Position numbers and translations under genes: made by a program. Under the pieces are notes generated by a model that saw only the letters and a program-made list of their open reading frames with translations, searched no databases and was not told the DNA's origin. 45,792 bases of DNA. Origin: Thermoanaerobaculia bacterium (lineage in GTDB: Bacteria; Acidobacteriota; Thermoanaerobaculia; Multivoradales; JAGPDF01). How positions within the stretch are numbered: the stretch's first letter is position 1; each line of letters starts with the position of its first letter. The stretch spans positions 1 through 45,792 of the forward strand of contig JAIOJQ010000328.1 in the NCBI GenBank assembly GCA_019911865.1. The letters are read 5' to 3'. This document shows, in pieces, positions 6,788-45,792 of the stretch.

Positions 6788-8340
<1,553 letters not shown>

Positions 8341-8376
8341 CTCAGCTCTCCCGTTCCCGGCGCGACCGCGAAATCA

Positions 8377-11994: not shown

Positions 11995-12055
11995 GGTCTG
12001 GTCCGATTCCTCTTCCGGATTGATCGCGCGGCAGGGACGTGGGCGTCCGCGCCGG

Positions 12056-22700: not shown

Positions 22701-22769
22701 GGCACGCCTCCTCGGAACTCGGACCGCCATCTTACGCGTCGACACCTGCCGCCGGACGTGATCCACCCG

Positions 22770-22795
22770 GTAACCGAATCCGCGGGCGCGGCGAA
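22770..22795 (+). promoter_or_regulatory. ECF promoter GTAACC-N16-CGAA upstream of the DedA-reductase operon
   Basis: GTAACC gaatccgcgggcgcgg CGAAGA, 57 bp before ATG 22853. Confidence 0.75.
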
Positions 22796-22852
22796 GATCC
22801 CGGTGAACGCACCGTTCGCGCACTCCCGGCGGCGAATCGGAGGGAAGCAACC

Positions 22853-29103: not shown

Positions 29104-30159
29104 ATGGCTCGACTCGCCCCTCTGTTCGCGATCGTGACGGCACTCGCGCTGCCGGGCGCCTCCGCGCGGGCCTTCCACGGCGGCGGCGTCGCGGCCTGCG
29201 GCGGCTGTCACGTCACCCACAACAGCGCGGACGGCTTGCCGATCGTGCCGGGGCCGGCCAACGACTACGCGCTGCGTTCGACGACGCCGAGCGAGGTCTG
29301 CCTGCTCTGCCACGCACAGTCGGCCGGCATGGTGCTCGGCCTCAACCCGCTCGCGCCGCCACCCGAACGGGGCGGCGGCAACTTCGTCTTCCTGCTCGAG
29401 GAGAACCTGAACGACGCGGCCGACGGCGCGACGCGCCCCATCCCGGGTGCGGCGGCGGGACACAACCTGGTCGCCCCCGCGTACGGCCTGACGGCGGACA
29501 CGCGCCACGGCGTCTCGCCCGGCGGCAGCTTCCCGGCCACCGAGATGGGTTGTACGAGCTGCCACGATCCGCACGGCCGCACGAGCTTCCGGATGCTCTG
29601 GGGCGCCGGCACGATCCGCGACGGGCTCTTCGTCTTCGGCGCGCCGGCGCCGGTCGCCAGCGGGCTGCCGCTGACCGCAGGTGCCGTCGAGCGGCGCGGC
29701 GCCCACTCCGCCTACGTCTCGGGCATGAGCGCCTGGTGCGGCAACTGCCACGGCGATTACCACCGCACCGTCGGCACGGAGAACTTCGAGCATCCGAACG
29801 ACGCCATGCTCTCGATCGCCGTCGTCGACCAGTACAACCGCTACCAGGGCGTACTCAATCCGACGGGCGGCAACCCGCTCGACGCCTACCTGCCCGAGGT
29901 GCCGTTCGAGGACGTCTCCACCGCGGTCGAGTCGACCGCGGGCCCGAGCGCGACGAGCCGCCTCTCCTGTCTCTCCTGTCATCGCGCCCATGCGAGCTCG
30001 GCGCCCGCGGCGCTCCGGTGGGACTTCGCGATCGCGACTCTGGGCGAGGACGGCGCCGTCTCGGGCTCGTGGCCGATCCCGAATCCGTACGGCGACCCGT
30101 CGCAACCCGGGCTGTGCTGGAAGTGCCACGCCGGCGGCGCCCCGCCTCCGACGCCCTGA
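29104..30159 (+). CDS. OmcS-family hexaheme cytochrome c, paralog 2
   Basis: Signal peptide ARA|FHGGGVAACGGCHVTHNS, 6 CxxCH motifs, GGNF, GHNL, CHDPHG, MSAWCGNCH, HP, YN.Y, PFED, CLSCHRAHAS, LCWKCH. These match recalled Geobacter OmcS motifs. Confidence 0.88.
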   Translation: MARLAPLFAIVTALALPGASARAFHGGGVAACGGCHVTHNSADGLPIVPGPANDYALRSTTPSEVCLLCHAQSAGMVLGLNPLAPPPERGGGNFVFLLEENLNDAADGATRPIPGAAAGHNLVAPAYGLTADTRHGVSPGGSFPATEMGCTSCHDPHGRTSFRMLWGAGTIRDGLFVFGAPAPVASGLPLTAGAVERRGAHSAYVSGMSAWCGNCHGDYHRTVGTENFEHPNDAMLSIAVVDQYNRYQGVLNPTGGNPLDAYLPEVPFEDVSTAVESTAGPSATSRLSCLSCHRAHASSAPAALRWDFAIATLGEDGAVSGSWPIPNPYGDPSQPGLCWKCHAGGAPPPTP

Positions 30160-30183: not shown

Positions 30184-33100
30184 GTGACCCGACCCGAAAC
30201 GAGCTCGCACGCCTCCGCGCCGCCGCTGCGGCGGCGCGCCACGTTTCGCCTCGTCGCGCTGATCTTCGTGCTCTCCGGCGCGGCGGCGCTCGTCTACCAG
30301 GTCGTCTGGACGCGCGCTCTCGGCCTCGTCTTCGGCAGCTCGCACCTCGCGGTGACGACCGTTCTCGCGGTCTTCATGGGCGGCCTCGCGCTCGGCGGCG
30401 CACTCTTCGGTCGCCGGGTAGGCAGCGAGCGCCGGCTGCTCCGGCTCTACGGCCGGCTCGAGCTCGGCATCGCCGCCGCCGCGCTCGGCTTCGCCCTGCT
30501 CGTGCGTGCCTATCCGCTCCTCTATGTCCCGCTCGCGCGCCTGGGCGAGAGCTCGCCCCTCTACCTCTCGATCCTGCGCGTCGGCTTCGCCGCCCTTCTG
30601 CTCCTGGTTCCCACGACGCTCATGGGCGGCACGCTGCCGGTCCTCGCGGCCTTCGTCGGCGGGCGCGGTCGGGAATTCGCGGCAAGGCTCTCGTTGCTGT
30701 ACGCGCTCAACACCTTCGGAGCGGTGCTCGGGGCCGGCGCGGCCGGATTCGTGCTCCTCCGCTTCTTCTCGGTCTCCACCAGCCTCGGCGTGGCGATCGG
30801 CATCAACGTCCTGCTCGGCTTCGCCTGCCTCGCGCTCGACCGGCGGTTGCCGTCCGCCGCCTCGCCGGAGCCCGAAGCCGCCACGCCCCCGGCGCCGGCG
30901 AGCCCCGTCGGCTCGCCGCGGCCCATTTCGGATCCTCTCCCTGGCCGCCTCGTGCTCTTCGGCGCCGGCGTCTGCGGCTTCGCCGCGCTCGGCTACGAGG
31001 TGCTCTGGACGCGCGTGCTCGGCATGGTGATCGGGGCGAGCGTTTACGGCTTCACCGTGATGCTGATGGCCTTCCTGACCGGCATCGCCCTCGGCAGCTC
31101 GGCCTACGGAGCCTGGAACCGCAAGCGGTCGGCACGAGTCGACCGCGGGCCCGATGCGGCGGTCCGCACCTTCGCGATCGTGCAGGTCGCCATCGGCGCC
31201 GCCGGTCTCGCGGTGACCGGCGCCTTGCGGGAGCTGCCGTCGCACGCCTACCAGCTCCAATGGTCGCTCCTCGGCGGACCCGCCCACGGCTTCGCGACCC
31301 GCCAGGCGATCGATTTCCTGCTCGCCTTTCTCTACGTGCTCGTACCGGCCTTTCTCTCGGGGCTCGCCTTCCCGCTCGCGGCGCGCATTCGCGCCGAGCG
31401 CGGTGGCGAGCCGGCCTGCGCGGTCGGCGAGACTCTCGCCGTGAATACCGTCGGCGCGATCGCGGGGGCGGCAGCGAGCGGCTACGTGCTGGTCCACCTG
31501 GTCGGCATCGAGCGCTCGCTCCAGCTCCTGTCGCTCGCTGTCGCGGGCTGCGGACTGGTCGTCGCGGCCAGCCTGCGCGGCCCCCGCCTCGCCGTCGCCG
31601 CCGCGGCGGCGATCGGTGTCGCCGCCCTCCTGCTCGCCTCCGCCGGCGACGCGCTGCGCTCCTGGGACCGGCGCTTCTTCGCCGTCTACCAGTCGAACCG
31701 GCCCGACAAGTTCTCGACCCCCGAGAAGACGCGCGACACCCTGCGCAACACCGACGTGCTCCACTACGCCGAGGGGGTGCAGGCGATAGTCAGCTCGATC
31801 AAGGTCAAGGGCGGCACCCAGTCGTTCATCACCAACGGCCGGATCGAGGCGACGGACAACCCGCCGGACCTCGCCTGCCAGTACACGCTCGGGCACCTGC
31901 CGATGCTCCTGCACCCCGAGCCGCGGAAGGTCTTCGTGCTCGGCACCGGCAGCGGCATGACGCTCGGCGCGACCGCCGCTCATCCCTCGGTCGAGCGCGT
32001 CACCCTCGCCGAGATCGAACCCGCCGTGCTCGGCGTCGCGCGCACTTTCGCCCGCTACAACCACGATGTTCTCGAGGATCCCCGTCTGCGCGTCGTGCTC
32101 AACGACGGCCGCAACTTCCTGCTCACGACGCGCGAGCGTTTCGATGTCATCACCGCCGACCCCATCCATCCCTGGTTCAGCGGCGCCGGCTACCTCTACA
32201 CGAAGGAGTATTTCGACCTCGCGTCATCACGGCTCGCGCCCGGCGGCGTGATGTGCCAGTGGCTGCCGATCTACGAGCTGGATGCCGCGAATCTGCGCTC
32301 CATCGTTCGCACCTTCCTGTCGAGCTTCGAGCACGTGCTCGTATGGCTCACCCACTACGACGCGCAGCTCGTCGGCAGCAATGCGGCCTTCCGGATCGAC
32401 GAGCGAGAGCTCGACCGCCGCATCGCCCAGCCGGCCGTTCGCGGCGACCTCGACCGCATCCAGATGGGCTCGGCCCGCGACCTGCTCGCCTTCTTCGCCT
32501 TCGGCCGGCCCGGGGCCGAGGCTTACTCGGCTGGCGCCCGCCTGAATACCGACGACAATCTCTATCTCGAGTTTTCCGCCCCGCTGTCCATGGAGGAGCC
32601 GGCGCTCATCGCCGAGAACTTCGCCGGCCTGGTCGCCCATCGGGAGAGCCTGCTGCCCTACCTCGCGCCCGCCGACGGGGAGGAGCGGAGCCGGCAGGAG
32701 GCGCGCGCGTCGGCGGCACTGACCGCCGCCCGCATCGCCGATCCGATCCGTCACCGTGAACTGGCCGGGGAGATCGGCCCGACGGAGGCCGCGCGACTCG
32801 CCGCCGAACTCGGCCCCGCCCTGGGGGACTACGGACCCTGGCGCTACCTGCTCGGCGAGTTCGCGCGCGACCGGGCCCAGGCGCCGCAGCTTCTCCGCCA
32901 GGTTTTCCTGCCAGCGGTCAAGCCCGGGGGCGCCGTGGAGCCGATCCGGCTCGGCGCGATAGCCCGGCGGATGACCGGGGTGATCACGACGCTCGACTTC
33001 GTCGACGGCCGCGACGGTCGCGTGCTGGCGCACCACGAGATCCTGGGAGGACCCGAAGGCGCGGCCGGCGAGCTCGTCGAAGCCGCGTTCCGGGACGTCC

Positions 33101-33243
33101 GGGAGGCCTACGCCGCCGAGCGCCGCGCGGCGAGCGCGCGCGGCGAGAGCGCGCCGGCCGAGGCCAGGCTCCTCGAGCGCCTCGCCGCGGTCCTCGGCAG
33201 CCGCCTCGCCCGGACGGACGACACCGGCCTTCCCGTTCGCTGA
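30184..33243 (+). CDS. Fused MFS-like membrane domain/spermidine synthase-like (SAM-binding) protein
   Basis: Motifs SGAAALVYQVVW, FMGGLALG, LYALNTFG, VLGTGSG, AEIEP, NDGRNFL, FDVITADP, QWLP, NTDDN. Confidence 0.92.
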   Translation: MTRPETSSHASAPPLRRRATFRLVALIFVLSGAAALVYQVVWTRALGLVFGSSHLAVTTVLAVFMGGLALGGALFGRRVGSERRLLRLYGRLELGIAAAALGFALLVRAYPLLYVPLARLGESSPLYLSILRVGFAALLLLVPTTLMGGTLPVLAAFVGGRGREFAARLSLLYALNTFGAVLGAGAAGFVLLRFFSVSTSLGVAIGINVLLGFACLALDRRLPSAASPEPEAATPPAPASPVGSPRPISDPLPGRLVLFGAGVCGFAALGYEVLWTRVLGMVIGASVYGFTVMLMAFLTGIALGSSAYGAWNRKRSARVDRGPDAAVRTFAIVQVAIGAAGLAVTGALRELPSHAYQLQWSLLGGPAHGFATRQAIDFLLAFLYVLVPAFLSGLAFPLAARIRAERGGEPACAVGETLAVNTVGAIAGAAASGYVLVHLVGIERSLQLLSLAVAGCGLVVAASLRGPRLAVAAAAAIGVAALLLASAGDALRSWDRRFFAVYQSNRPDKFSTPEKTRDTLRNTDVLHYAEGVQAIVSSIKVKGGTQSFITNGRIEATDNPPDLACQYTLGHLPMLLHPEPRKVFVLGTGSGMTLGATAAHPSVERVTLAEIEPAVLGVARTFARYNHDVLEDPRLRVVLNDGRNFLLTTRERFDVITADPIHPWFSGAGYLYTKEYFDLASSRLAPGGVMCQWLPIYELDAANLRSIVRTFLSSFEHVLVWLTHYDAQLVGSNAAFRIDERELDRRIAQPAVRGDLDRIQMGSARDLLAFFAFGRPGAEAYSAGARLNTDDNLYLEFSAPLSMEEPALIAENFAGLVAHRESLLPYLAPADGEERSRQEARASAALTAARIADPIRHRELAGEIGPTEAARLAAELGPALGDYGPWRYLLGEFARDRAQAPQLLRQVFLPAVKPGGAVEPIRLGAIARRMTGVITTLDFVDGRDGRVLAHHEILGGPEGAAGELVEAAFRDVREAYAAERRAASARGESAPAEARLLERLAAVLGSRLARTDDTGLPVR

Positions 33244-33256
33244 AGCGACGGCGTGC

Positions 33257-34219
33257 TCAGCGGGGCGGCGCCGGCGCGGCGCCGAGGCCGCCGTAGACCT
33301 GGACGCGGCCATCGGCCGATTGCGCCACGTAGGCGCGGCCCGCGGGGTCGAGCGCGAGGTCGTAGGGGAAGTAGAGCCAGCCCGGGGCGTCGCCCAATCC
33401 GAGGTGTTCCGACAGGCATTCGTTGTCCGCGATCCGCCAGCGCGTCACCATCATGCGCTGGGCGTCGAGCACGACCACGTGCCCTTCGGTATCCAGCGCG
33501 GCAGCGGTGGGATAGCCGAGGTGGAGCGGGCCCGAGCCGCGCACACCGACGCCGCCGACCCGCGCGCCCTCGAGCGTGTAGACGAGCACCCGTCCGCGCA
33601 GCGGGATCGTGACCACGACGCGGTCGCCCGAGACGTCGACGTGGCCGGGCGCCCATTCGGACCGCTCGTCCTCGGGATCCTCGGCGCCGAGGTCGATGCC
33701 GCCGAGGACGTGGCCGTCGCGGTCGGCGATCCAGACCTTCGAGTTGGCGCCGTCGGCGAGGAAGATCCGATCGCCGTCGAGCGACAGCGCGACCGAGCCG
33801 AGCGCGGGCGGCACGCTCCCCTCCGGCAGGTCGACGATCGGCACCTCGCGCCGGAAGCGACCGTCGAAGTCGATCTCGACGAGCGCCAGCCCCGGACCGC
33901 GGCGCGCGAGGACGAGGAGAAAGCCTTCGGGGTCGACCGCGAGATCCTCGGGCGACGCGAGCTCCTCGCCGCCCAGGATCTGCGCCTCGAACTGGCCCTC
34001 GCGGTCGAAGATCAGGATCCGGCTCGTCCGCGGGTCGCAGACGAAAACCTCGCCGGTGTGGGGATCCGCCGTCACGCAGTTGCCGTAAGCGATGTCGTCG
34101 CCGGCGACCGGCAGGCTCAAGCGCCCGAGGTAGCGCACCTCGGCCGCCGAAACCGTGGCGGGCGACGCCAACACGACGAGGAGCGCCGCGAGAGTGCGGA
34201 GCAGGACCCGGCCGGTCAA
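33257..34219 (-). CDS. Secreted NHL-repeat beta-propeller protein
   Basis: Signal peptide. Repeats SPEDLAVD, YPTAAALD, FPYDLALD. Confidence 0.85.
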   Translation of the reverse strand: MTGRVLLRTLAALLVVLASPATVSAAEVRYLGRLSLPVAGDDIAYGNCVTADPHTGEVFVCDPRTSRILIFDREGQFEAQILGGEELASPEDLAVDPEGFLLVLARRGPGLALVEIDFDGRFRREVPIVDLPEGSVPPALGSVALSLDGDRIFLADGANSKVWIADRDGHVLGGIDLGAEDPEDERSEWAPGHVDVSGDRVVVTIPLRGRVLVYTLEGARVGGVGVRGSGPLHLGYPTAAALDTEGHVVVLDAQRMMVTRWRIADNECLSEHLGLGDAPGWLYFPYDLALDPAGRAYVAQSADGRVQVYGGLGAAPAPPR

Positions 34220-35133
34220 CGGCCACTTCCGATCACGTCGAAGAGCTGGGCGCGACCGTTGCCGCCGTCGGAGACCAGCAGGGCACCGTTGGGCAGGCGC
34301 GCGAGCGCGTCCGGGAAGTAGAGCTGGCCCGGCTCCCAGCCTTTGCCGCCGCCGAGGCCGAGCAGCTGGCCCTCGCCGTCGAGGACGACGACCCGGTGCT
34401 GATGGCGGTCGAGGACGAAGAGGCGACCGCCGGGCTCGGCCACGATCCCCGCGGGCCAGAGCGGCACCGGGCTCTCCGAGGGCACCCGCATCCGCCCTGC
34501 GGGTCGGCCCTCCGCGTCGAAGCGCTCGAGCGCGCCGCGCTCGCCGATGCCGACCCAGAAGCCGCCGGCGCCGTCGCTCGCGAGCGCGGTGACGTTGCCC
34601 GCGATCGCGGCCCGAGCGACGACGGACGACCCCTGGAGCTTGGCGACCCGCCCGCGGCGCGCGTCCCAGACCAGCAGGCCGCCGTCCGAGGACTCCGCGA
34701 TGCGGCCGGCGACGATGCCGTCCGGCAGCGCCAGCTTGCGCGGCTCCTCCGCCGATGCGCCGCCGCGCACCGCCAGGAGCTCGGAGCCGGCGCCGCGCAG
34801 CACGGCGAGATACTCCCCGCCCACGAACGCCAGCGCGGCGGGCGGCGCCGGCAGGGCGACCTCGCGGCGCAGCGGCCAGCCGGATCCGACCCGGTGGAGA
34901 ATCAGCAGACGGTTGCCGTGCGCGTCGGCGACCGCGATCTCGTCGGCGCCGCCCACTGCCACCGCGACCGGCCAGCGCAGCGGGCGCTCGGCCGGTCCGT
35001 CGACCACCGCGGCGTAGCGCAGCAGGCGCTGGGCGAGCTGCTGGGTGAGGGCGGGCGCGGCGATCGCGACGACGAGCGCGAGCGCGATGGCGAGCGGGCG
35101 GCCGCCGCGCCGGGCGAGGCTTCGGGCGGGCAT
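34216..35133 (-). CDS. Secreted NHL-repeat beta-propeller protein
   Basis: Signal peptide. Repeats WPVAVAV, WPAGIVA, GQLYFPDALA, VSDGGNGRAQLF. Confidence 0.82.
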   Translation of the reverse strand: MPARSLARRGGRPLAIALALVVAIAAPALTQQLAQRLLRYAAVVDGPAERPLRWPVAVAVGGADEIAVADAHGNRLLILHRVGSGWPLRREVALPAPPAALAFVGGEYLAVLRGAGSELLAVRGGASAEEPRKLALPDGIVAGRIAESSDGGLLVWDARRGRVAKLQGSSVVARAAIAGNVTALASDGAGGFWVGIGERGALERFDAEGRPAGRMRVPSESPVPLWPAGIVAEPGGRLFVLDRHQHRVVVLDGEGQLLGLGGGKGWEPGQLYFPDALARLPNGALLVSDGGNGRAQLFDVIGSGR

Positions 35134-36404
35134 CACTGGTTCCTCCTCGCCATCGATTTGTGGCAACTGACGCAGAGATCGGTCACCTCCCCGGCGTGGA
35201 GGTACTTGGGGTAGGGCGCCTCGTGGATCGCGTGACAGGAGCCGCAGTCCATCGGCGCTCCCGAGCGCGGATCGAGCTTGTCCTCGCCGAGGGGATGGCT
35301 GACCCCGTGCTGGTGGGAGTGGCAACTGCTGCAGACCGCGACCGGATCGTCGACGAACAGGCGCGGCTGCCCGGCGCCGTGCGGCGCGTGGCAGGTGGTG
35401 CACGAGACCTGCCCCGCGTGCAGGGCGAAGCGCCCGGGCTGCCGGGAGGCGGCGCCGCCCGGATCGTGACAAGCGAGGCAGGTCGCCTCCTCCTTGCGCT
35501 GGAGGATCGCCGCGCCCTCCCCCGCGTGCGGGTTGTGGCAGTCGGTGCAGCGCCCGCCCGCCGCCGAGACGTGGCCGAAGCGCGCCTGGCGCGACTCCTC
35601 GACCTGGTCGGCGTGGCAGTCGCCGCACAGCTCGTCCTCGGGCTTGACCAGGGCGAAAGGGCGCTCCGCGGAGCTCGCGACGTGACAGGTCGAGCACGTG
35701 CCGCTGCCGAACGGCTCGTGGACGATCTGCCGGAGCAGTCCGGGCCGATCCGAGGCGTGCGGATCGTGGCAGGTCGCGCATTCGGCCTTCTCGACCGGGT
35801 AGCCGCCGTGAATCGACCGGAAGCGGGCGTCGACGGCGTGGCAGCTCGTGCACGAGGCGCCCGGCTTGATCAGCCCCGGCGTGTCGCTGGCGTGCGCCTC
35901 GTGACAGGTCGCGCACCGGCCTTGCGCGAACGGCGCGTGCGGGGACTTGCGCTGCTGCCACTCCGCGACGTCGACGTGGCACTCCTGGCAGAGCTCGGTC
36001 GCCGGCCGCGCGAGGAGGCCGGCGAAGGGGGCACCGTGCGCGGAGTGACAGATGGCGCAGCGCGCCTCCGCGACCGGCGCATGGACCACCTTGCGCGCCA
36101 GCTGGGCGGTAACGTCTTCGTGGCAGCGCGCGCACAGCGGCCCGGGCTGATCGAGGAGCAGGCCCTCGAGGCGGGAGACGTGGGGGTTGTGGCACGCGGA
36201 GCAGTCGCCCTCCGCGGCGGGCGGATGCTTCACCTTCGCCGCCAGCGCGTCCGCCAGGTCGTGGCACTCGAGGCAGACCTTGAGCTCGTCGACCTCGGCC
36301 GCCTGCGGCGCCCCGGCGGCGAACGCCGCCGTTCCGATCATTGCGAGCGCCGGAGCTCCGAGCAGCGCGAGCGTCGCGAGCGCGATCCGGATCGGAGCGT
36401 TCAT
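35133..36404 (-). CDS. Periplasmic multiheme cytochrome c, 16 CxxCH
   Basis: Start MNAPIRI at 36404, signal peptide, 16 CxxCH in paired CxxCHxPH...LCxxCH units. Confidence 0.93.
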   Translation of the reverse strand: MNAPIRIALATLALLGAPALAMIGTAAFAAGAPQAAEVDELKVCLECHDLADALAAKVKHPPAAEGDCSACHNPHVSRLEGLLLDQPGPLCARCHEDVTAQLARKVVHAPVAEARCAICHSAHGAPFAGLLARPATELCQECHVDVAEWQQRKSPHAPFAQGRCATCHEAHASDTPGLIKPGASCTSCHAVDARFRSIHGGYPVEKAECATCHDPHASDRPGLLRQIVHEPFGSGTCSTCHVASSAERPFALVKPEDELCGDCHADQVEESRQARFGHVSAAGGRCTDCHNPHAGEGAAILQRKEEATCLACHDPGGAASRQPGRFALHAGQVSCTTCHAPHGAGQPRLFVDDPVAVCSSCHSHQHGVSHPLGEDKLDPRSGAPMDCGSCHAIHEAPYPKYLHAGEVTDLCVSCHKSMARRNQ

Positions 36405-38332
36405 CGTGCACCTCCCGCGGCCGCCCCGTCGGTATGGCAGGTGTCGCACGCCCTCTCCGCGAACGGCGGGTGGGCGACCGGCAGCAGCAGACCCCCCTCC
36501 TTCGCGGCGTGCGGATCGTGGCAGCTGCCGCAATCGAGCGTCTTCGCCGGCAACCCGAGGTGCGCCGCGGCGAAGTCCCTGCCGTCGCCGGGATGACAGC
36601 TCAGGCAGCCTTCGGCGACCGGCTGCCGGAGCAGCGAGGGCTGCGGCGCGACGTGCGGCGAGTGGCAGTCGATGCACCCCTCCGGCTCGGCGGCCGGCGG
36701 GTGCGCCACCTGCTGGTCGATCGCCTGCTCGACCGCCGTGTGGCACGAGCCGCAGAGCGGCCGCACCGGCGCGCGCAGGAACGCCCGCGTGGCGCTGGCG
36801 TGCGGCTGGTGGCAGGCGGTGCACGAGCGACCCGCGCCCTCGTGGGTGGAGCCGCCGACCGGCGCCTCGACCTTGACGTCGTGGCACTCGGCGCACAGCC
36901 GCGCGGTCGGCGCGGTGAGCAGCGCCGGCACCGCGGCCGCGTGCGGCAGGTGGCAGCTCGCGCAGTCGCCGTCGGCGAAGGGCGGGTGCTGCGGCAGGCC
37001 GTCCGCCGCCCGCATCTCAACCTCGTGGCAGGTCGCGCAGAGCTCCTTGCCCTGGGCGACCAGCAGGTTCGCGCCGCCCGCGTGGGGCTCGTGGCACGAC
37101 GAGCAGGCGCCGGTGGCGACCGGCTGGTGGACGACCGGCAGACCCGAGCGGGTGCCGATCTCGCCGTGGCAGTTGCCGCACAGCGCGTCCTGGTCGCGGA
37201 CCAGTATCGCCTTGCGCCCGGTGCCGTGCGGATCGTGACACTCCGAGCACTCGCCGCGCGACGGCTCGTGGACGACGGCGGCCCCGGCTCCGACCGGGTC
37301 CTCGTGGCAGCTCACGCAGAGCGCGCGCGGCTCCTCGCGCAGCAGCCCCGCGACCTGGCTCTGGTGGCCGGCGTGACACGCCGTGCAGTCGCTCGCGGCC
37401 GGGTGGGGCGCCGGCAACGCCATCGCCTTCGCCACGTCGCCGTGGCAGCTCGTGCAGAGCTCGGCGGGCGCCGCGCGGAGCAGCGCGGGGTGGTCCGTCG
37501 TGTGCGCGTCGTGGCACGCGAGGCAGTCGCCGCGCAGCACCGGCCCGTGCACCGAGGGCGCCGAGCCGGCTTCGACCGCGGCGTGGCAGTCGAGACAGAC
37601 CCGCGCGCCACCGGCCGGCTTGCCGGACCCTCCTTCGTGGCAGCTCGTGCAGTCCATCTCCGGGTGGATCGCGACGCCGAGCAGCCCCGCGCGCGCGCCG
37701 CTGTGCGGCCGGTGGCAGCTCGCGCAGTCGGTGCCGGCGACCGCCATCCCCGCGTGCGCGCCAGCCCAGCCGTCCGCGCTCGCGTGGCAGCCCGCGCAGA
37801 GCGCGTCGCCCGCCTGGAGCAGCTGCTTCGGGTGCGCGCTGCCGTGGGGCGAGTGGCACGACGAGCAGCCCTCGGCGGCCGGCGGGTGCGGCACCTCGCC
37901 GTCGAGCCCGGCGGCGGCGTGACAGCCGGCGCAGAGCTCGCGCTCGGGCAGGACGAGCAGCGCCTTCTGGTTCGAGCCGTGCGGATCGTGGCAGGACGAA
38001 CACTGCTCGACCCCGGGGTGCCGGTGCTCGGCCTTCGTCCCGAGCTTCGACACGTCGTGGCAGGACAGGCAGAGAGCCGGCTCGTTCTCGGTCAGGCGCA
38101 GAGCACCGACCAGCCCGTGCGGCTTGTGGCAGGAGTCGCAGCCCTCGGCGAGCGGCGCGTGCGGCACCCGGACGTCCTTGCCGACGTCGGAGTGGCAGGA
38201 GGTGCAGGTGGAGCCCTGCTCGAAGCGGCCGCCGCGCTTGAGCTGCGCGTCGGCGCGTGGCGCGAGAGCGAGCCCGCCGAGGCCGGCGAGAGCTGCCGCG
38301 AGCGCGAGAGCCCGGATCGGTTGGGTGGTCAT
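36401..38332 (-). CDS. Periplasmic multiheme cytochrome c, 26 CxxCH
   Basis: Signal peptide and 26 CxxCH motifs counted in the translation. Confidence 0.95.
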   Translation of the reverse strand: MTTQPIRALALAAALAGLGGLALAPRADAQLKRGGRFEQGSTCTSCHSDVGKDVRVPHAPLAEGCDSCHKPHGLVGALRLTENEPALCLSCHDVSKLGTKAEHRHPGVEQCSSCHDPHGSNQKALLVLPERELCAGCHAAAGLDGEVPHPPAAEGCSSCHSPHGSAHPKQLLQAGDALCAGCHASADGWAGAHAGMAVAGTDCASCHRPHSGARAGLLGVAIHPEMDCTSCHEGGSGKPAGGARVCLDCHAAVEAGSAPSVHGPVLRGDCLACHDAHTTDHPALLRAAPAELCTSCHGDVAKAMALPAPHPAASDCTACHAGHQSQVAGLLREEPRALCVSCHEDPVGAGAAVVHEPSRGECSECHDPHGTGRKAILVRDQDALCGNCHGEIGTRSGLPVVHQPVATGACSSCHEPHAGGANLLVAQGKELCATCHEVEMRAADGLPQHPPFADGDCASCHLPHAAAVPALLTAPTARLCAECHDVKVEAPVGGSTHEGAGRSCTACHQPHASATRAFLRAPVRPLCGSCHTAVEQAIDQQVAHPPAAEPEGCIDCHSPHVAPQPSLLRQPVAEGCLSCHPGDGRDFAAAHLGLPAKTLDCGSCHDPHAAKEGGLLLPVAHPPFAERACDTCHTDGAAAGGAR

Positions 38333-38351: not shown

Positions 38352-40085
38352 TCAGCCGCCGTGACCGGGAACCGCCGGCGCCTCCTCCGGCGCCGTCGGC
38401 AGGATCTCGAAGCGGGCGAGAGCCGCCTGGTCGATCCAGATCTCGGAGCGCTCGCGGAGCTTGGCGATCACCTCGTCGATCCGCGCCACGACCTCCTGGT
38501 TCTCGAGCTTCGCCTTGACGTTGCCCGAGACGGCCTCGAACGGATAGTGGTCCTGCTCCTCGTAGACGTCGACCTGGAGGAGCACCCAGCCGTTCGGGCT
38601 CTCCCTGGGGCCGAGAATGTCGCCCTTGCGCGCGTCGAGGAGATCCTCGCGGAAATTGAGCAGGCCCTCGGTCGCCAGCACCCAGCCGCGGTCGCCGCCG
38701 GCCTCCTTGTAGGAGTCGGTCGAGTTCTGGCGGACGAGCCAGGCGAACTCCGCGCCGCCCTTTGCCAGGCCGGCCAGCCGCTCGGCCTGCTCGCGGGTCG
38801 GCACCGTGAGCTGGAGCAGGTGCAATCGCGGCGGCTTGCGGAACTCGTCGCGGTGCTCGTCGTAGTAGGCACGCGCCTCGGCCGGAGTCACCTCGACCCC
38901 GGCGGCGACCGTCTCCTTGAGGTACTTCGAGGCGAGATGGCTGAGCTCGAGCGCATGCAGCTCGCGCCTCACCTTCGGCGTGTCGCCATAGCCGCGGCGC
39001 AGGCCCTCGGCGATCAGCATCTCCTCGAAGATCAGCTCGTCGAGAACGCCCGGCTTGTATTCGGCGGCGAGCACCGGGTTGGTGACTCCCGACCAGGCCG
39101 TGCCGAGCCGGCCGGCAAGCTCCTTGATGGTCAGCGTGCGGCCGGCGAGCCGCGCCACGGCGCGCTCGGGATCGGCGAACCTGGGCAGCAGCTTGCCGTC
39201 GTGCATGCGCTGAACCTCGATCGACTCGTAGGCCGCCCAGTCGACCTCCAGGCCGAGCGACGGCTCGAGCCGCTCGACGAGCGCCTTGCGGAGCGCGAGC
39301 TCCTGCCGGTGGCGGAGCTCGACCAGGACCCGGCGGGTCCGCTCGGCGAACTTTTCGGGATCGGCCGGCTCGACCTTCACCAGCCGGGCGAGGGTCCAGC
39401 CCCATGGCGTCGCGAGCGGCGCCGAGAGCGCGCCGGGCTCGCTCGTCTTGGCGAACTCGAGCAAGGACTGGTGGAGGTCGGTGAAGGCCGTGTTCATTCG
39501 GCCGCCGCGCCCGGCGTAGGGATCCTGGGAGTCGGTCCCGGCCAGCTCCGCCCAGGCCTCCTCGCCGGCCGGTTCGAGCTTCGCTCGCAGCGCCTCGAGC
39601 TCGGCCCGGTCGCGCCGGGTGAGGATCCGGAGCGTCGCGAACCGGTAGACGTCCGCGTAGACTTCGCGCGCCTTCGGCTCGGAGAAATCGAGCCGCGCCA
39701 GGATCTCCTCGCGGAAGACCTCGCCACGCGCCTTCGACTCGCGGCGCGCCACGAGCTTGCGCGCGAGCTGCGGATCCGCGTCCATCTCGAGTGTCCGCGC
39801 CTCCTGGGCGAGGAGGGTGTCGTTGACCAGGCGGAACATCAGCTGCTCGAGGTCGAAGCGTGACCGCTGCCGAACCTGCTGGGAGCGGTGGATCTCCTCG
39901 AGGACGATCTCGATGTCCTCGCTGTAGAGCGCTTCGCCGTTGACGCGGGCAACGACGGTCGAGCCGGCGTCGGGGGGATCGAGCTCCTGCCCGACGCCCG
40001 GCAGCGGCGCGGCGAGCAAGGCGAGGGCAGAGAGCCAGCGGACGGGTCGCGCCGCACGGCGCGCCCGCGGTGGTGAAGTGCGCAT
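38352..40085 (-). CDS. Parvulin/PpiC-type (SurA/PrsA-like) peptidyl-prolyl isomerase with two rotamase-like modules
   Basis: Start MRTSPP at 40085. Motifs VVARVNGE, EARAYYDEHRDEF, FAWLVRQNSTD...GGDRGW, GPRESPNGW. Confidence 0.85.
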   Translation of the reverse strand: MRTSPPRARRAARPVRWLSALALLAAPLPGVGQELDPPDAGSTVVARVNGEALYSEDIEIVLEEIHRSQQVRQRSRFDLEQLMFRLVNDTLLAQEARTLEMDADPQLARKLVARRESKARGEVFREEILARLDFSEPKAREVYADVYRFATLRILTRRDRAELEALRAKLEPAGEEAWAELAGTDSQDPYAGRGGRMNTAFTDLHQSLLEFAKTSEPGALSAPLATPWGWTLARLVKVEPADPEKFAERTRRVLVELRHRQELALRKALVERLEPSLGLEVDWAAYESIEVQRMHDGKLLPRFADPERAVARLAGRTLTIKELAGRLGTAWSGVTNPVLAAEYKPGVLDELIFEEMLIAEGLRRGYGDTPKVRRELHALELSHLASKYLKETVAAGVEVTPAEARAYYDEHRDEFRKPPRLHLLQLTVPTREQAERLAGLAKGGAEFAWLVRQNSTDSYKEAGGDRGWVLATEGLLNFREDLLDARKGDILGPRESPNGWVLLQVDVYEEQDHYPFEAVSGNVKAKLENQEVVARIDEVIAKLRERSEIWIDQAALARFEILPTAPEEAPAVPGHGG

Positions 40086-41146
40086 CAACCGGACTCCTTC
40101 ATGACCACTGCGGCCTCCCCGCCAGAACCGGCGAGGAGCATACGCGTGGCGATTCGTTCGAGCAGATTCCGCAGCTGCGCGCCGCGCGAGTGGACGCGGC
40201 CGCGACCGAACCACCCCTCTCGGTCGAAGCCGCCACCTTCGAGCGAGCCGACGAAGAGGATGCGGCCCGACTCGGCGTCGAGCAGCCGTACCGCCACCGC
40301 GACCACCGGCTCGGGCGAGCTGCCGCCGCGAACTTCCCAGCGCTCGACCGAACCGGTGACCAGCCGGGCGGCGCCGCAGGCGTCGCGCACCTCGGCGCGG
40401 ACCTCCGCCGAGAGCTCGCCCCATCGGATGCCGCCCGGGCCGCGCAGCGCCGTCGTCACGCAGCCCGGCTCGGCGAGCGGGATCCCGGCGGCGACGAGCA
40501 GCGCGCGCATCGTCTCGGTCGCCGCCGCCGCGACCTCGAGCCCGTCCGCCACCTCGTTGACGGTGAAGGGCACGATGCCGACGAGGTCGGGCGGCGCGGC
40601 GACCCCGACTCCCGGGCTCGCCGGCGCGACCGCGCCGAGCTCGACGCCCGCCAGCAGCTCGGTGACCACCGGCGGCAGCAGGGTCGCGAGGTCGGCGACC
40701 GCGCCGATCCCCAGCAGGCCGCGCGTGTCCAGCCCGGAGCGGGCGACCGCGGCGGCCCACGCCATGCGGCCCGTCCGCCCGTCGTAGAGCCGGGCCGAAA
40801 CCGTGAGATCGGGAACCAGATGCTCGGGCGCGTCGTGGATCGCCACCGAGATCAGCCAGTCGGCCCCGAGCGCCGCCGCGATCGCGCGCAACCGCTCGGG
40901 CGGCGCGCCGTCGGCGTTGCGCAGGCGCTCGGCGCGCAGCGCGGCCCGGGTCCGCTCGGCGTCGATCACGGTCGCCCTCCGGGCGAGCTCGGCAGTCACC
41001 GCCTGCTCGAACCGCGCGCCGAGTCCCTCGACCCGCACGCCCTGCCGCACGGGCAGCAGCGCGACCGTGTCGGCCAGCGCTGCGCGGCCGGCCAGGGCGC
41101 CGGCGGCGAGCAGGAGCGGAGCGAGGAGGGAGCGGCGGCGCATCAC
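40085..41146 (-). CDS. Exported protein with two CsgG/LpoB/GNA1162-like domains
   Basis: Signal peptide. Two units, VALLP...ARLYDGRTGRMAW and VGIVPF...VRLLDAESGRILF. Confidence 0.7.
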   Translation of the reverse strand: MMRRRSLLAPLLLAAGALAGRAALADTVALLPVRQGVRVEGLGARFEQAVTAELARRATVIDAERTRAALRAERLRNADGAPPERLRAIAAALGADWLISVAIHDAPEHLVPDLTVSARLYDGRTGRMAWAAAVARSGLDTRGLLGIGAVADLATLLPPVVTELLAGVELGAVAPASPGVGVAAPPDLVGIVPFTVNEVADGLEVAAAATETMRALLVAAGIPLAEPGCVTTALRGPGGIRWGELSAEVRAEVRDACGAARLVTGSVERWEVRGGSSPEPVVAVAVRLLDAESGRILFVGSLEGGGFDREGWFGRGRVHSRGAQLRNLLERIATRMLLAGSGGEAAVVMKESG

Positions 41147-41149
41147 GGG

Positions 41150-41734
41150 CTACTTGAGCAGCGTCTCCACGAGCCGTCGCACGCAGCGTCGCGTCGTCAC
41201 CGAGAGCGGTTCGCCCTCGTTGCCGAGCAGGCGCGCCGAGGCGACCGAGCCCTTCTCGGTGTGCGTCGCCGCCCAGATGATGGCGCCCGACTCGGTCTCG
41301 ACCAGCTGGGCGTCGACGGTCACCGTCGGGACGCCGGCCGAGCCCGAGCGCAGCACCTCGGACTGCAGGACGGCGCCCGCGATGACCGCCTGGACACCGA
41401 GCGTCTTGCCGAGTTCGACGATCTGTTCGGTGCTCGGACGCTGGGCCCGGTTGGCGCCAAATTTGACCGTGGCGGCGTTCACCTCGCCGGGCTCGACGAC
41501 GTCGACCGCGCCGGTCGCGAGCAGCTCGGTGACCAGCAGTCGGGTCACGCGCGCGGCCGCGGCGGTGTCGTTCGAGTAGTTCTCGAACGGCAGCACGGCC
41601 ACCCTCTCGACGAACGAGAAGTCGATCTTCGGGTTGGTGAACTTCGTCGGCCCCATCGACCCGCAGCCGCTGAGGGCCCCGAGGCAGGCGACGAGGAGGG
41701 CGAGGCATCGGGTCGAGCTTCGGAGTTTTCTCAC
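41150..41734 (-). CDS. Lipoprotein, CsgG/LpoB/GNA1162-like
   Basis: Lipobox LSGC, RVAVLPFEN, LGVQAVIAG, LVETESGAIIW. Likely start GTG 41734. Confidence 0.8.
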   Translation of the reverse strand: MRKLRSSTRCLALLVACLGALSGCGSMGPTKFTNPKIDFSFVERVAVLPFENYSNDTAAAARVTRLLVTELLATGAVDVVEPGEVNAATVKFGANRAQRPSTEQIVELGKTLGVQAVIAGAVLQSEVLRSGSAGVPTVTVDAQLVETESGAIIWAATHTEKGSVASARLLGNEGEPLSVTTRRCVRRLVETLLK

Positions 41735-41750
41735 GGTTCGCACCTTCCGA

Positions 41751-43901
41751 TCAGAAGGAGAGGGTGGTGCCTGCGTTGACACTGGTCACGGCGGTCTCCG
41801 GGCCGTCCGCGATCGCCGAGCTCGAGCGCGTCATGGAGCCGAAGAGCACCAGTCGGGCCGCGAGCCGGTAGTGCAGGGCGAGGCTCTCGTTGCGGGTTTG
41901 CGCGCCTTCGCGCTGGGAGAAGTCGTCCCAGCCGAGCGCGAGGCTCAACTTCGGTCCCGGGTTCCACGACAGATTGTAGCTCTGCCGAATCGTGGCGCCG
42001 GTCGACTCGTCGAAATAGGCGATCGTGCCGCCGAGGCCGAGCGCGGCGCCGGGTGTCCAGCCGAAATCGACGAACAGGCTGGAGCTCTCGAAGCGCGGCC
42101 CGCCGGCGACGGCGCTCTCCGTGCGGCTCCAGGTGTAGCCCCCGCCCAGGCGCCAGTCCTGGCGCGGGCGCATGTCGATCCGCTCCGTCCAGGTGAGCGT
42201 CTCGCGCGCCCCGCCGGTCCCCGGGGTCTCGATCCGGCTGGTCGACAGGTTGGTCACGAGACGCAGCTCGTCGAGCAGGTCGAGGGCGATCGTCGCGCGC
42301 GCGTAGCGGAGGTTCGACAGCTCGTGCCGCTCGTCGGAGTCGGTCCGCACCCCGGTCGCGAGCAACGCGTCGACGGTGTCGAGTGGATTCCAGCGCAGGC
42401 TCGCTCCGAAGTCGTCGGAGATCCGGGTCAGGTCGCGTCCGGCGCCCTCCTCGTAGCGCGAGTGCCGGTAGGCGACCGAGAGCGTCAGGTCGCGCGCGAG
42501 GTCGAGGCCGAGTCCGCCGTTGATCGCCGAACCGGTGGTGTCCCGCCGCACCACGCCGCCCACCGTCGTCGAGTCGTTGCTCGCGTCGGCCGAGGCGTGG
42601 AAGTGGAGTCGCTCCGAGACCCGCCACGCCAGGCTCGCGGCCGCCCGGTAGAGGTCGGCGCTGCGCTCGGGCTGGAGCGCCTCGACCGCGACGTCGCGCA
42701 GGGCGACGAGCTCGGTGACGCGGACCTCGTTCTCCGGGTTGATCGAGACGTTGACGGCCTTCAGATAACGCTCGGAGGACTCCAGGAAGTGGAGCTGATA
42801 GCGGAGCAGATCGGGGTCCCAGGCGCGCTCGAGGATCGTCACCGGCTGCCAGACCAGGCCGTCCGCGCTCTGGTAGACGTCCCAGGCGACCTGGGCGCCC
42901 GAGAGGCGGTCGACGACGATGTCGAGCCGGTGCGCCGGCACCGGCAAACCGAGGTCGAGGGCGAGGTTGCGGAAGGTGTTGGCGCCGCCGATTTCGATCG
43001 CCGGCGCGACCGGCGTCGAGAGGTCGCCGTCGACGAGGCCGGGCGCCGCGTCGAGTTCGCCGAGGGCGGGCGAGAGGTCGACGCCGGCGAAACCGCGCAC
43101 CGCCGCGATCGGCTCCGCGAGCTCGCCCTCGCCGCGGCTCTGCTCGGCTTCGAGCCGGCCGGCGACGCCCGCGAAGGAGAGGCGGACGCGATCGCCCGCC
43201 AGCGCGCGCGCCGCGGTGAGCCGCAGGTCGTGACGCAGCTGGGTGACGTCGAGGGCGGCCGCGCCGCCGGTGAGCTCGTTGTACCTGCCGCCGTACCCGA
43301 CGCTCCAGCGCGGGCGCTCGAACAGCAGGTCGACGCGCCCGACCCGCTGCTCGAGCCCGCGGCCGAGTGCCGCCACGCTCGCCGACTCGTCGGCGAGGTC
43401 GCGCCAGGAGAGGCCGAGGCGGAAGCCGCGCGGCGCGCGCCAGGAGAGGCTGGTGGTGAGCGCGCGCGACTCGAACTCCGCCGCGTCCGCGCCGGTGTCG
43501 GACCGCAGGCTCTCCCAGGCGACGCGCCACGACAGGTTCGGCGCGCCGTAGCGCAGCTCGGCCACCGGCTGCACGGTGGTGCGCGAGAAGGCCTCGACGC
43601 CGTCGAGCTGCGCGGCCTGCTCGGCGTAGAGGCCCGAGAGGTGCAGGCTCAGGTAGGGCGTGAGCTCCTGGACGACCGCGACGTTGGCGGAGTGATCGCT
43701 GCCGTCGACCACGGCGTCGCCGAGATCGGTGCTCGTCCAGCCGAGCCGGAGGGCGCCGTCGAGCGTGCCGGCGCGTGCCGCCGAGGCCGCCGCCAGAGCG
43801 AGCCCCGCCAGAACGAGGCTGCGCCCGGCACCCTCCCGCGAAACCTGCGACGCGCGTCTCACGGCGGGCATTCTCACAGCCAGCTCGAACGCCGCCACCA
43901 T
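41751..43901 (-). CDS. Outer-membrane beta-barrel with an inserted discoidin/F5/8-type-C-like domain
   Basis: Signal peptide, alternating amphipathic strands, C-terminal TLSF. Start is 43871 or 43901. Confidence 0.8.
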   Translation of the reverse strand: MVAAFELAVRMPAVRRASQVSREGAGRSLVLAGLALAAASAARAGTLDGALRLGWTSTDLGDAVVDGSDHSANVAVVQELTPYLSLHLSGLYAEQAAQLDGVEAFSRTTVQPVAELRYGAPNLSWRVAWESLRSDTGADAAEFESRALTTSLSWRAPRGFRLGLSWRDLADESASVAALGRGLEQRVGRVDLLFERPRWSVGYGGRYNELTGGAAALDVTQLRHDLRLTAARALAGDRVRLSFAGVAGRLEAEQSRGEGELAEPIAAVRGFAGVDLSPALGELDAAPGLVDGDLSTPVAPAIEIGGANTFRNLALDLGLPVPAHRLDIVVDRLSGAQVAWDVYQSADGLVWQPVTILERAWDPDLLRYQLHFLESSERYLKAVNVSINPENEVRVTELVALRDVAVEALQPERSADLYRAAASLAWRVSERLHFHASADASNDSTTVGGVVRRDTTGSAINGGLGLDLARDLTLSVAYRHSRYEEGAGRDLTRISDDFGASLRWNPLDTVDALLATGVRTDSDERHELSNLRYARATIALDLLDELRLVTNLSTSRIETPGTGGARETLTWTERIDMRPRQDWRLGGGYTWSRTESAVAGGPRFESSSLFVDFGWTPGAALGLGGTIAYFDESTGATIRQSYNLSWNPGPKLSLALGWDDFSQREGAQTRNESLALHYRLAARLVLFGSMTRSSSAIADGPETAVTSVNAGTTLSF

Positions 43902-43951
43902 CCGCGAGGGTGGCCCCGCCGCAACCCGCGGCGCGGGGCGGCCGGCCCCCC

Positions 43952-43987
43952 AAAAAAAGCGACCCGGGGTGCGGACACCCCGGGTCG
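43952..43987 (-). terminator. Intrinsic terminator after the OmcS-like gene
   Basis: Perfect 12-bp stem CGACCCGGGGTG/CACCCCGGGTCG, 4-nt loop, then C and T7 on the minus strand. Confidence 0.9.
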
Positions 43988-44023
43988 ATGTGGCGCCGGC
44001 AGGCGCCGGATCTCTACCTCAGA

Positions 44024-45175
44024 TCACGGCGTGACGAGGTGGTCGAACTCGTCCTGCGTGTGGCACTTGTTGCAGAGCGACTTCTGGTCGTCGTCCGCCG
44101 GCAGCGTCGCCTGGGCGTACGGGATCTTCCAGGAGCCCGAGGTCGCGCCGTCGGTCTCGATGTTCTGGATCGTGAAGTCCCAGCGGCCCATGTCCTGCGC
44201 CGAGGTGGCGTGGGCGCGGTGGCAGGTGACGCAGGCGACCATCGACGTGCCCGCGGTCGGACCGGCGGTCGAGGTGGTCGTGACCGAGGGATCCTCGAAC
44301 GGCGTGTCCGGCAGGTAGGCGTCGACCACGGTGCCGCTGCCGCAGGGATCGGTCGGGCCGGTCGGCGGGTTGTTGACGCAGTCGGCCGTGCCGCGATACT
44401 CGTTGTACTTGGCGACGATCGTCGCGGTCAGAGCCTCGCCCGACGGGTGGATCAGGTTGCCGGACGAAGCGTGGAAGTCGCCGTGGCAGGTGGAGCACCA
44501 CTCGCTGTAGCCCGAGTGGTAGGCGTTGTGGTTCGCCAGGCCCTCGATCGAGTTGTAGCTGATGCCCTCGGCCACCAGGGTGCCGCCGAACGTCACCTCG
44601 TCCCCGCCGACGTCGATCGTCTGGCCGGTCTGGTAGAGGAAGCGGAAGCTGTCCTGGCCGTGCGGGTCGTGGCAGCTCGTGCACTCGAGCTGGTTGTTCG
44701 CCAGCTCGGCCTGGCCGCCCGGGGGATAGAGCAGCGTGGTGTCCCAGTTGCTGCCCTTGATGCCGGAGCGCAGGTTGTGGCCGGCCCGCTGGCCCGGGAT
44801 CGGGTTGGTCGCGCCGCCGCGGCCGTCGTTGACGTTGTCCTCGAGCAGGAACACGAAGTTGCCGGCGCTGTAGTACTCCTGCAGCGTCGGATTCAGTGGA
44901 TCCGACTCGAACACGTTGTAGCTGGCGCTGTTGTTGCCGTGGCAGCGCAGGCAGGTGTCGGTCGCGTTCGGCAGCAGCAGCAGGTCGGTGTAGCCGAAGC
45001 CCGGCGCCAGGCCCGGCCCGGTGCCGGTGGCGTCGAGGTTCATGCCCAGGTTGTTGGCGCTGTTGTGCATGGTGTGACAGCCCTGGCAGTAGCCGACCGA
45101 CTCGTGGTGGAACGCCATCGCCGGGGCGGCGAGCAGCACCGCGACGGCGGCGATCAGAAGCATCCGGTTCTTCAT
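44024..45175 (-). CDS. OmcS-family hexaheme cytochrome c, probable major nanowire subunit
   Basis: AMA|FHHESVGYCQGCHTMHNS, 6 CxxCH, AGNF, GHNL, NQLECTSCHDPHG, SEWCSTCH, CHRAHA, Q.SLCNKCH..D. AAAGGAG RBS. Confidence 0.9.
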   Translation of the reverse strand: MKNRMLLIAAVAVLLAAPAMAFHHESVGYCQGCHTMHNSANNLGMNLDATGTGPGLAPGFGYTDLLLLPNATDTCLRCHGNNSASYNVFESDPLNPTLQEYYSAGNFVFLLEDNVNDGRGGATNPIPGQRAGHNLRSGIKGSNWDTTLLYPPGGQAELANNQLECTSCHDPHGQDSFRFLYQTGQTIDVGGDEVTFGGTLVAEGISYNSIEGLANHNAYHSGYSEWCSTCHGDFHASSGNLIHPSGEALTATIVAKYNEYRGTADCVNNPPTGPTDPCGSGTVVDAYLPDTPFEDPSVTTTSTAGPTAGTSMVACVTCHRAHATSAQDMGRWDFTIQNIETDGATSGSWKIPYAQATLPADDDQKSLCNKCHTQDEFDHLVTP

Positions 45176-45235
45176 CTGGCGTCTCCTTTCCGTCGCCCTC
45201 GGGCGCGGGAGTTTTCATGTCTGTCCAGCTCTAGC

Positions 45236-45250
45236 GCAACGAGCGTGCCC
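45236..45250 (-). promoter_or_regulatory. Sigma54 (-24/-12) promoter
   Basis: Minus strand reads gGGCACGctcgTTGCg against the consensus TGGCACG-N4-TTGC, 61 bp upstream of the ATG. Confidence 0.75.
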
Positions 45251-45372
45251 GCTTCGCGGCGAGCCGCCGCGCGGACCGCCGGGGCGCGCCGCAAATCGTG
45301 TGTCGAGAATGGGTTGCGAGCCGGACTCGCAGTGCCGGCGAACGACCCGGCGGCGGTGGTGCGGGCGGACGC

Positions 45373-45419
45373 TGCGCAAGTTTCCCCACGGCTCGCCGCG
45401 GCGTGCGAAAAATCTCCCA
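45373..45419. promoter_or_regulatory. Two tandem candidate enhancer-binding-protein sites
   Basis: TGCGCAAGTTTCCCCA (45373-45388) and TGCGAAAAATCTCCCA (45404-45419) are quasi-palindromic and 31 bp apart. Confidence 0.55.
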
Positions 45420-45466
45420 GTCTCCCGGGGTAGGCCGCTCGCGGGAGCGCCTGGGTCGGCGGAGAG

Positions 45467-45792
45467 GCGAAGGCGCCGGCGGTTTCGCTTCGGCAAGAGC
45501 GGCTGGAGCAGTAGTGAGGCACGCGGTCAACTTACGCCGTGGCCGGCGGCGGGAGGCCGCCTGGGCGGGTGGCAGCGTCGTGCTGGCCGGGTAGCGACGA
45601 CCGGCGCGAGGTCAGCCGCGGCCGAGCCGGCGGGCGCGACGGGCGAGCATGGCGTGGGTCGTCGCTACCCGGCCAGCACGACGCTGCCACCCGCCCAGGC
45701 GGCCTCCCGCCGCCGGCCACGGCGTAAGTTGACCGCGTGCCTCACTACTGCTCCAGCCGCTCTTGCCGAAGCGAAACCGCCGGCGCCTTCGC
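45467..45792. repeat. Perfect inverted repeat with 136-bp arms and a 54-bp spacer, running to the window end
   Basis: 45467-45602 is the reverse complement of 45657-45792. Confidence 0.95.

Follow-up and report, generated by a model that had tools for sequence, protein, structure and literature searches.

The hexahaem c-type cytochrome OmcS of Geobacter sulfurreducens (GSU2504; PDB 6EF8 / 6NEF) is the sole solved structure of its fold in the PDB copy searched, although its family spans many uncultured phyla and numbers ~2,000 clusters when grouped at 50% identity. Eleven of the 12 axial histidines of OmcS are provided by its own subunit, and one, at haem 5, is provided by the neighbour (PMC6584659 and PMC9473688). 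In the Geobacter osc operon OscH folds OmcS, OscE/F/G act in secretion and OscD in morphology (PMC13194489), and an eight-gene block lies downstream of the OmcS-like gene GSU2501 (PMC12977616). Here we describe a locus of similar composition on contig JAIOJQ010000328.1 of a Thermoanaerobaculia bacterium (assembly GCA_019911865.1), of which the whole stretch of 45,792 nucleotides (nt) was analysed and is called the window below. Its gene g1 encodes a hexahaem cytochrome of the OmcS family, and we hold with moderate confidence that this protein repeats as the subunit of a haem wire of the OmcS type, which would be made and exported by the products of g2-g5 and fed by the multihaem cytochromes g6 and g7a. 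Directly supported for g1 are its family membership, its fold, its conserved ligand set, its conserved neighbourhood and its presence in contigs from RNA libraries; polymerisation of its product is, we infer, likely. The features of g1 are the following:

44024..45175, minus strand: g1, OmcS-family hexahaem c-type cytochrome, precursor of 383 amino acids (aa), 362 aa mature
45113..45175, minus strand: Sec-type signal peptide of g1, 21 aa, ending in ...APAMA before FH, cleavage placed by alignment to residue 1 of mature OmcS
44342..44380, minus strand: Cys-closed loop C266...C278 (precursor numbering), CVNNPPTGPTDPC, an insertion of 12-13 residues when compared with the other short forms

g1 as a member of the OmcS family

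When g1 was compared by phmmer with all PDB chain sequences, OmcS (6ef8/6nef) was the sole significant match (E 1.2e-25). Residue 22 of the g1 precursor fell on the first residue of mature OmcS (chain 6ef8_A), the N-terminal 25 residues were aligned without gaps, 12 of the first 18 were identical, and F1, H2, C9xxC12H13 and H16 coincided between the two mature proteins. A profile built from 95 g1 relatives matched OmcS with an E of 1.4e-58 and covered residues 1-149 and 184-407, leaving OmcS 150-183 unaligned, while all six CxxCH motifs of g1 were each paired with one OmcS motif. The AlphaFold2 model of g1, calculated from the same 95-relative alignment, had a mean predicted local distance difference test (pLDDT) of 82.9 and a predicted template modelling (TM) score (pTM) of 0.80. 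Using this model in Foldseek, OmcS alone was retrieved at E <= 0.001 (E 6.1e-15, TM 0.67/0.64), and VIA-align superposed model residues 22-375 on OmcS 1-407 with a Z of 26.4 and a root-mean-square deviation of 2.8 A over 319 residues at 34% identity. Because of these results, membership of g1 in the OmcS family is secure on sequence grounds, and an OmcS fold is securely predicted by the model. A complex prediction from the 95-relative alignment, with two copies of g1 (residues 22-383) and four haems, gave a score of 0.01 against a mark of 0.42, which speaks neither for nor against binding.

The spacer between haem motifs 3 and 4 is bimodal across the family and measures either 52-63 or 77-140 aa. 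Conservation of histidines in these two classes was determined in an alignment of 157 six-haem mature sequences, consisting of P0001, 90 cluster representatives and 66 open reading frames (ORFs) of related loci; rows without the N-terminal motif, rows with a number of CxxCH other than six and cluster representatives below 320 aa mature were left out. Exactly six non-motif histidines were 100% conserved in both classes, 73 sequences with the short and 84 with the long spacer (157/157), and these are, in mature g1 numbering, H2, H16, H112 (GHN), H151 (DPH), H222 (HP) and H301 (RAH). Since six haems are matched by six universal distal histidines, there is no universally conserved spare histidine that could replace H16, and the count fits the OmcS ligation described above, with 11 axial histidines from the own subunit and one from the neighbour. 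The neighbour-donated histidine of OmcS is reportedly His16, according to work of Wang et al. in 2019. A simple family rule of six invariant distal histidines and two spacer classes thus emerges from the analysis. The original prediction had placed g1 among the OmcS-family hexahaem cytochromes, with the OmcS N-terminal register and six named distal histidines; sequence, profile and fold matches agree with the placement, the register aligns residue for residue, and the histidines named are exactly those of the invariant set.

One further histidine distinguishes the two classes. H195 of mature g1 (precursor H216, window positions ~44528-44530) is present in 100% of the 73 short-spacer forms but in 23% of the 84 long-spacer forms, in which arginine is the commonest residue at this position (48/84), as in OmcS (R228). 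H195 may pair with a haem propionate instead of serving as an axial ligand. H214 is found in 86% of the short forms and 48% of the long forms.

The two cysteines outside the six CxxCH motifs of g1, C245 and C257 in mature numbering, are aligned with Leu and Phe in OmcS. Among 105 full-length close relatives of g1 both are 99% conserved, and they bracket an insertion of 12-13 residues that the other short forms lack in the alignment. Their spacing ranges from 9 to 17 residues among relatives, with the cysteines themselves retained. Given that the cysteines are kept despite the variation in loop length, and in a secreted protein, a disulfide-closed loop is the natural reading, and most likely the two residues are joined by a disulfide, which staples a surface loop specific to this clade. 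Among 77 OmcS-like ORFs, taken from the window and from 76 related loci in species-representative genomes, the pair occurs only in g1 and in three loci (L003, L004 and L010) from metagenome-assembled genomes (MAGs) of Acidobacteriota / Thermoanaerobaculia. A quick maximum-likelihood tree with 96 rows placed every one of the 23 rows with the pair in one 24-row group, the support of which by the Shimodaira-Hasegawa-like approximate likelihood ratio test (SH-aLRT) was 90, below the mark of 95.

The family around g1 is broad. Against 1.84 billion representatives, the 95-relative profile matched 2075 clusters (E <= 1e-3), with 776 left at 1e-10 and 186 at 1e-30, and the best 80 related loci of the contig scan were from MAGs of phyla other than that of Geobacter. 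An 18-residue motif from the OmcS N-terminus matched P0171 alone, and that sequence is not OmcS. Most of the 77 OmcS-like ORFs encode mature proteins of ~325-345 aa without extra cysteines, and this also applies to a paralogue in the same window:

29104..30159, plus strand: p1, second OmcS-family hexahaem cytochrome, mature 328 aa, 47% identical to g1, no Cys pair

Since most relatives, including p1, are shorter and lack the Cys pair, g1 is, as judged from the alignments, a short form that gained insertions and not the smallest form. The original prediction was correct in describing g1 as shorter than OmcS, as lacking the long loop after CxxCHDPHG and as carrying an additional Cys pair, which indeed closes an insertion and probably forms a disulfide. 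Its description of g1 as a minimal variant was not sustained.

The coding frame itself is well defined. The GC content at the three codon positions of g1 is 0.59/0.50/0.96, in a window of ~72% GC, a pattern that identifies g1 as a real coding frame, and an AAGGAG motif is located ~8 nt 5' of its ATG. After APAMA the protein continues as FHHESVGYCQGCHTMHNS, and the A-x-A/FH junction of the signal peptide is kept in g1 relatives; at the other end, 11 residues follow the last CxxCH. Long ORFs on the opposite strand across g1 (e.g. 43775..45433, plus strand) were rejected as GC-rich shadow frames. An Rfam scan of positions 43700-45792 (E <= 1) gave two chance microRNA-like matches and no known riboswitch family 5' of g1, and a scan of the whole window at gathering score gave no matches. 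Between g1 and the end of the contig lies an inverted repeat of 141 nt that is 99% complementary (45467-45607 / 45652-45792, arms 44 nt apart). Its second arm reaches the exact contig end, and mirror-image ORFs arise on both strands. The repeat is most likely an assembly fold-back artefact and not biology.

Neighbouring genes, hairpin and RNA-library contigs

Downstream of g1 a series of envelope-protein, chaperone and cytochrome genes is found on the same strand:

43960..43987, minus strand: terminator-like hairpin within the 122 nt that separate g1 from g2, 12-bp stem with 10 G-C pairs, loop of 4, followed by T7
41751..43901, minus strand: g2, predicted outer-membrane beta-barrel of 716 aa, C-terminal ...TLSF, no Pfam match; AlphaFold2 pLDDT 88.3, ~28 long strands
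41150..41782, minus strand: g3, LpoB/CsgG-like lipoprotein with lipobox LSGC (Pfam PF13036 E 5.4e-6, PF03783 E 1.3e-4)
40085..41146, minus strand: g4, secreted protein of 353 aa, no Pfam family matched
38352..40088, minus strand: g5, SurA-like chaperone carrying a prolyl isomerase domain of PPIC type (PF13145 E 1.7e-26) and a weak SurA_N_3 match
36401..38332, minus strand: g6, multihaem cytochrome of 643 aa with 26 CxxCH
35133..36404, minus strand: g7a, multihaem cytochrome of 423 aa with 16 CxxCH
34216..35133, minus strand: g7b, NHL-repeat beta-propeller (NHL E 2.8e-13)
33257..34219, minus strand: g8, second NHL/beta-propeller (NHL E 2.2e-13)

The genes g2-g8 are tightly packed, with overlapping or abutting stops and starts. 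Using tblastn, counterparts were detected beside the OmcS-like gene in 43/76 loci for g2, 46/76 for g3, 36/76 for g4, 47/76 for g6 and 31/76 for g7, and the phyla of the 76 loci include Acidobacteriota, Zixibacteria, Krumholzibacteriota, Ignavibacteria, Fibrobacterota and Calditrichota. In composition and order, g1-g8 resemble the osc nanowire-assembly cluster. That cluster is said to extend over GSU2501-GSU2493, according to the 2025 work of Shen et al. in Cell Chem Biol and papers citing it. Candidates for OscE/F/G-like channel components, compared by description, are the modelled barrel g2, the LpoB/CsgG-like lipoprotein g3 and g4, which belongs to no matched family. Foldseek with the g2 model returned generic large-barrel matches, namely TonB-dependent receptors, MtrB (best TM 0.41/0.44), PapC and LptD. 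Residues ~259-384 of g2 form a beta-sandwich inserted between barrel strands, which is the most conserved segment of the protein (DGN..IDIGG..W.VY.S.DN..W..RY.KAVN) and may serve as a plug or in the docking of a cytochrome.

The position of the hairpin between g1 and the tightly packed g2-g8 corresponds to the pattern expected of an abundant subunit ahead of its machinery. A hairpin (folding free energy, dG, <= -12) directly before a T-run was present within 160 nt 3' of 27/76 related OmcS-like ORFs, and in control windows shifted by -700, 600, 1200 and 2400 nt it was present in 3-6 of 67-77.

Contigs from RNA-seq libraries of one study span all of g1 without differences (X15, 44018-45460; X16, 44018-45233). 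Outside g1, X15, X16 and X18 gave only short low-depth pieces, the gaps and depths of which cannot rank genes. The RNA-library contigs of two studies (X15 and X16; X18) stop at 44018, 6 nt after the g1 stop codon. At this position X15 and X16 show an adapter-like loose end, and X17, an RNA-labelled run of a third study, bridges it. The predicted hairpin lies 31-58 nt beyond 44018, and contig end and hairpin do not coincide; a discrete RNA end at 44018 is at most weakly hinted at, and the shared contig end could stem either from 3' processing or from the assembly. All sampled words of the stretch (share 1.00) were found in sequencing runs of nine rows from four studies, labelled as bioanode or bioreactor metagenomes, and in two further rows (X10 and X11, study P5) that carry no organism label. 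The bioanode and bioreactor runs were flagged as possible DNA sources and therefore indicate the place of sampling and are not independent support.

The paralogue p1, the start of which was placed by choice at the M of MARLAPLF, is followed at 30184-33243 (plus strand) by a gene for a membrane protein of 1019 aa with a spermidine-synthase-like domain (PF01564, E 3.5e-24). This pair stands divergently beside the cluster in 3/76 loci (L044, L046 and L054). Several members of the p1 clade have seven CxxCH. Upstream of p1, a PEP (phosphoenolpyruvate) phosphomutase-family protein (27864-28661, minus strand, E 3e-78) and a decarboxylase dependent on pyridoxal phosphate (21243-22859, minus strand, E 5.8e-70) are encoded, which are possibly phosphonate-related and unconnected to g1. 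At 6787-12159 (minus strand) lies a NarGH-like pair, consisting of a molybdopterin oxidoreductase of 1260 aa and a four-cluster ferredoxin subunit of 517 aa with the C-terminal domain of nitrate reductase beta; its region has a GC content of 0.63-0.66 compared to 0.71-0.76 in the remaining window.

Wire subunit or non-polymerising cytochrome

If g1 is a wire subunit, its precursor would be exported by Sec and cleaved before F1, and the mature protein would take up six c-type haems with bis-His ligation by the histidines of the six CxxCH motifs and the six invariant distal histidines. The products of the osc-like genes, a SurA-like peptidyl-prolyl isomerase chaperone and a large barrel with lipoprotein partners, would fold the cytochrome and carry it through the outer membrane. 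If g1 behaves like OmcS, H16 in the N-terminal arm would complete the ligand set of haem 5 in the following subunit, and subunits would stack head to tail to give a continuous haem chain. Through this chain, electrons of respiration would then pass from the periplasmic cytochromes with 26 and 16 haems to minerals or electrodes.

Several points weigh against this proposal. A filament, a dimer and the haem contacts of g1 are all argued by analogy. Among the four OmcS-like paralogues of G. sulfurreducens a wire is known from OmcS alone, and the block-adjacent paralogue in Geobacter, which takes the position of g1, is GSU2501/OscC, the function of which is unassigned (PMC12977616). The N-terminus F-H...CxxCH-x-x-H is found in essentially every full-length family member, short or long, and both this register and H16 are conserved throughout the superfamily; therefore, they cannot separate wire-formers from non-polymerising paralogues. 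The original prediction had regarded the register as a polymerisation signature specially kept in g1, a view that does not hold for a hallmark of a superfamily of 2075 clusters, and by itself this N-terminal signature is unusable for calling a wire-former. In addition, the short forms carry with H195 an extra invariant histidine without an assigned role. The equivalence of g2-g8 to the osc genes is one of composition and order and not of direct comparison with Osc sequences, and the RNA-library contigs are no proof of g1 transcription, as DNA can occur in such libraries.

These points lead to an alternative that we regard as unlikely but serious, in which g1 is a non-polymerising OmcS-family cytochrome, a counterpart of OscC/GSU2501 or OmcT, that uses the downstream genes for its folding and export. 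It would then be a monomeric or dimeric electron carrier or a terminal reductase, acting on the outer surface or within the periplasm. Its position directly upstream of the block is that of GSU2501, for which no wire is known (PMC12977616), the H16 register is family-wide rather than specific to wire-formers, and H195 and H214 of the short forms could in principle complete the ligation within one subunit. However, the block-adjacent gene is the sole OmcS-like ORF within +/-10 kb in most loci, and only seven loci have two, so that if the block assembles wires, this gene is the sole candidate subunit there. Moreover, H16 is invariant although haem 1 has its own CxxCH histidine, which fits a ligand role, and the terminator after g1 suggests that its product is abundant relative to the machinery. 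It is improbable that p1 is the main filament subunit and g1 a minor, tip, anchor or alternative-condition subunit: the genome does hold two OmcS-family genes, and p1 lies in a clade of its own that is well supported and widespread (24 rows of the 96-row tree, SH-aLRT 96) and retains the six distal histidines and the N-terminal register, but it is not adjacent to the assembly block, no terminator-like hairpin follows it, it is g1-type and not p1-type genes that are syntenic with the block across phyla, and whole-gene RNA-library contigs were found for g1, a result biased by the choice of runs with g1 as probe.

Reading g1 as a wire subunit can be extended, tentatively, to the family. It is possible, though we would not expect it, that short-spacer relatives (~325-362 aa) are the commonest nanowire subunit outside the Geobacter lineage and that the acidobacterial clade gained a disulfide-stapled loop. 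If true, the stapled loop together with the H195 that is invariant in short forms could give the wire distinct helical packing, stability or bundling, and the loop could serve as an oxidation-resistant clasp or as a contact site between filaments. The bioanode labels of the DNA-bearing runs would agree with use of the wire on electrodes. No short-spacer OmcS relative has a solved structure. As a short and well-conserved subunit with the whole assembly cluster on one contig, g1 would be a practical candidate for testing whether cytochrome wires occur in Acidobacteriota and for learning which parts of OmcS are dispensable.

Comparison with known systems

Clusters that join OmcS-like genes with those for periplasmic cytochromes and barrels have been noted before, in marine Acidobacteriota MAGs (Ca. 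Polarisedimenticola, Flieder et al. 2021, PMC8528874) as well as in Krumholzibacteria (PMC7914226). As far as their available parts go, these reports are annotations in which the Cys-pair insertion, the spacer classes and the invariant histidine set are undescribed. In the published descriptions that were available, in part, none was found of the six-invariant-histidine rule, the two spacer classes, the H195 of short forms or the Thermoanaerobaculia-like Cys insertion, with no literature search aimed at the Cys pair. The assembly machinery is reportedly widespread, going by the title and the citing papers of the work of Shen et al. from 2025. The g1 locus is a solid case, though not a surprising one, of a system whose wide distribution has been reported before.

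Like the osc cluster of G. sulfurreducens, the locus has an OmcS-like hexahaem gene, after which come genes for envelope proteins, a chaperone of prolyl-isomerase type, a pair of large multihaem cytochromes of the periplasm and NHL/propeller proteins, tightly packed on a single strand, in agreement with PMC13194489 and PMC12977616. Three genes lie between the hexahaem cytochrome and the prolyl isomerase here, whereas there are four in the osc cluster, and no omcS/omcT pair is located upstream, unlike in Geobacter. The propeller genes are at the end of the cluster here. In Geobacter they are said, going by citing papers, to follow the cytochrome directly.

The closest described protein is OmcS, with which g1 shares 27-34% identity. 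Filaments are established for OmcS, and g1 is known here from its gene and predicted model. With 362 aa the mature protein is 45 aa shorter than the OmcS chain of 407 aa; the spacer from CxxCHDPH to the next CxxCH measures 54 aa in g1 and 91 aa in OmcS, and haem motifs 5 and 6 are set 19 aa closer together (48 versus 67 aa). Unlike OmcS, g1 carries the Cys-closed insertion of 12-13 residues, an N-terminal insertion of ~9 residues (GPGLAPGFG region) and the 11-residue C-terminal tail, and His195 sits where OmcS has Arg228. Common to both are the six CxxCH in the same order, the mature start F1-H2 with the C9xxC12H13 and H16 register, all six universal distal histidines, the blocks CxxCHDPHG, SEWCxxCH, CxxCHRAH and QRxLCNKCH and, as predicted by the model, the same fold.

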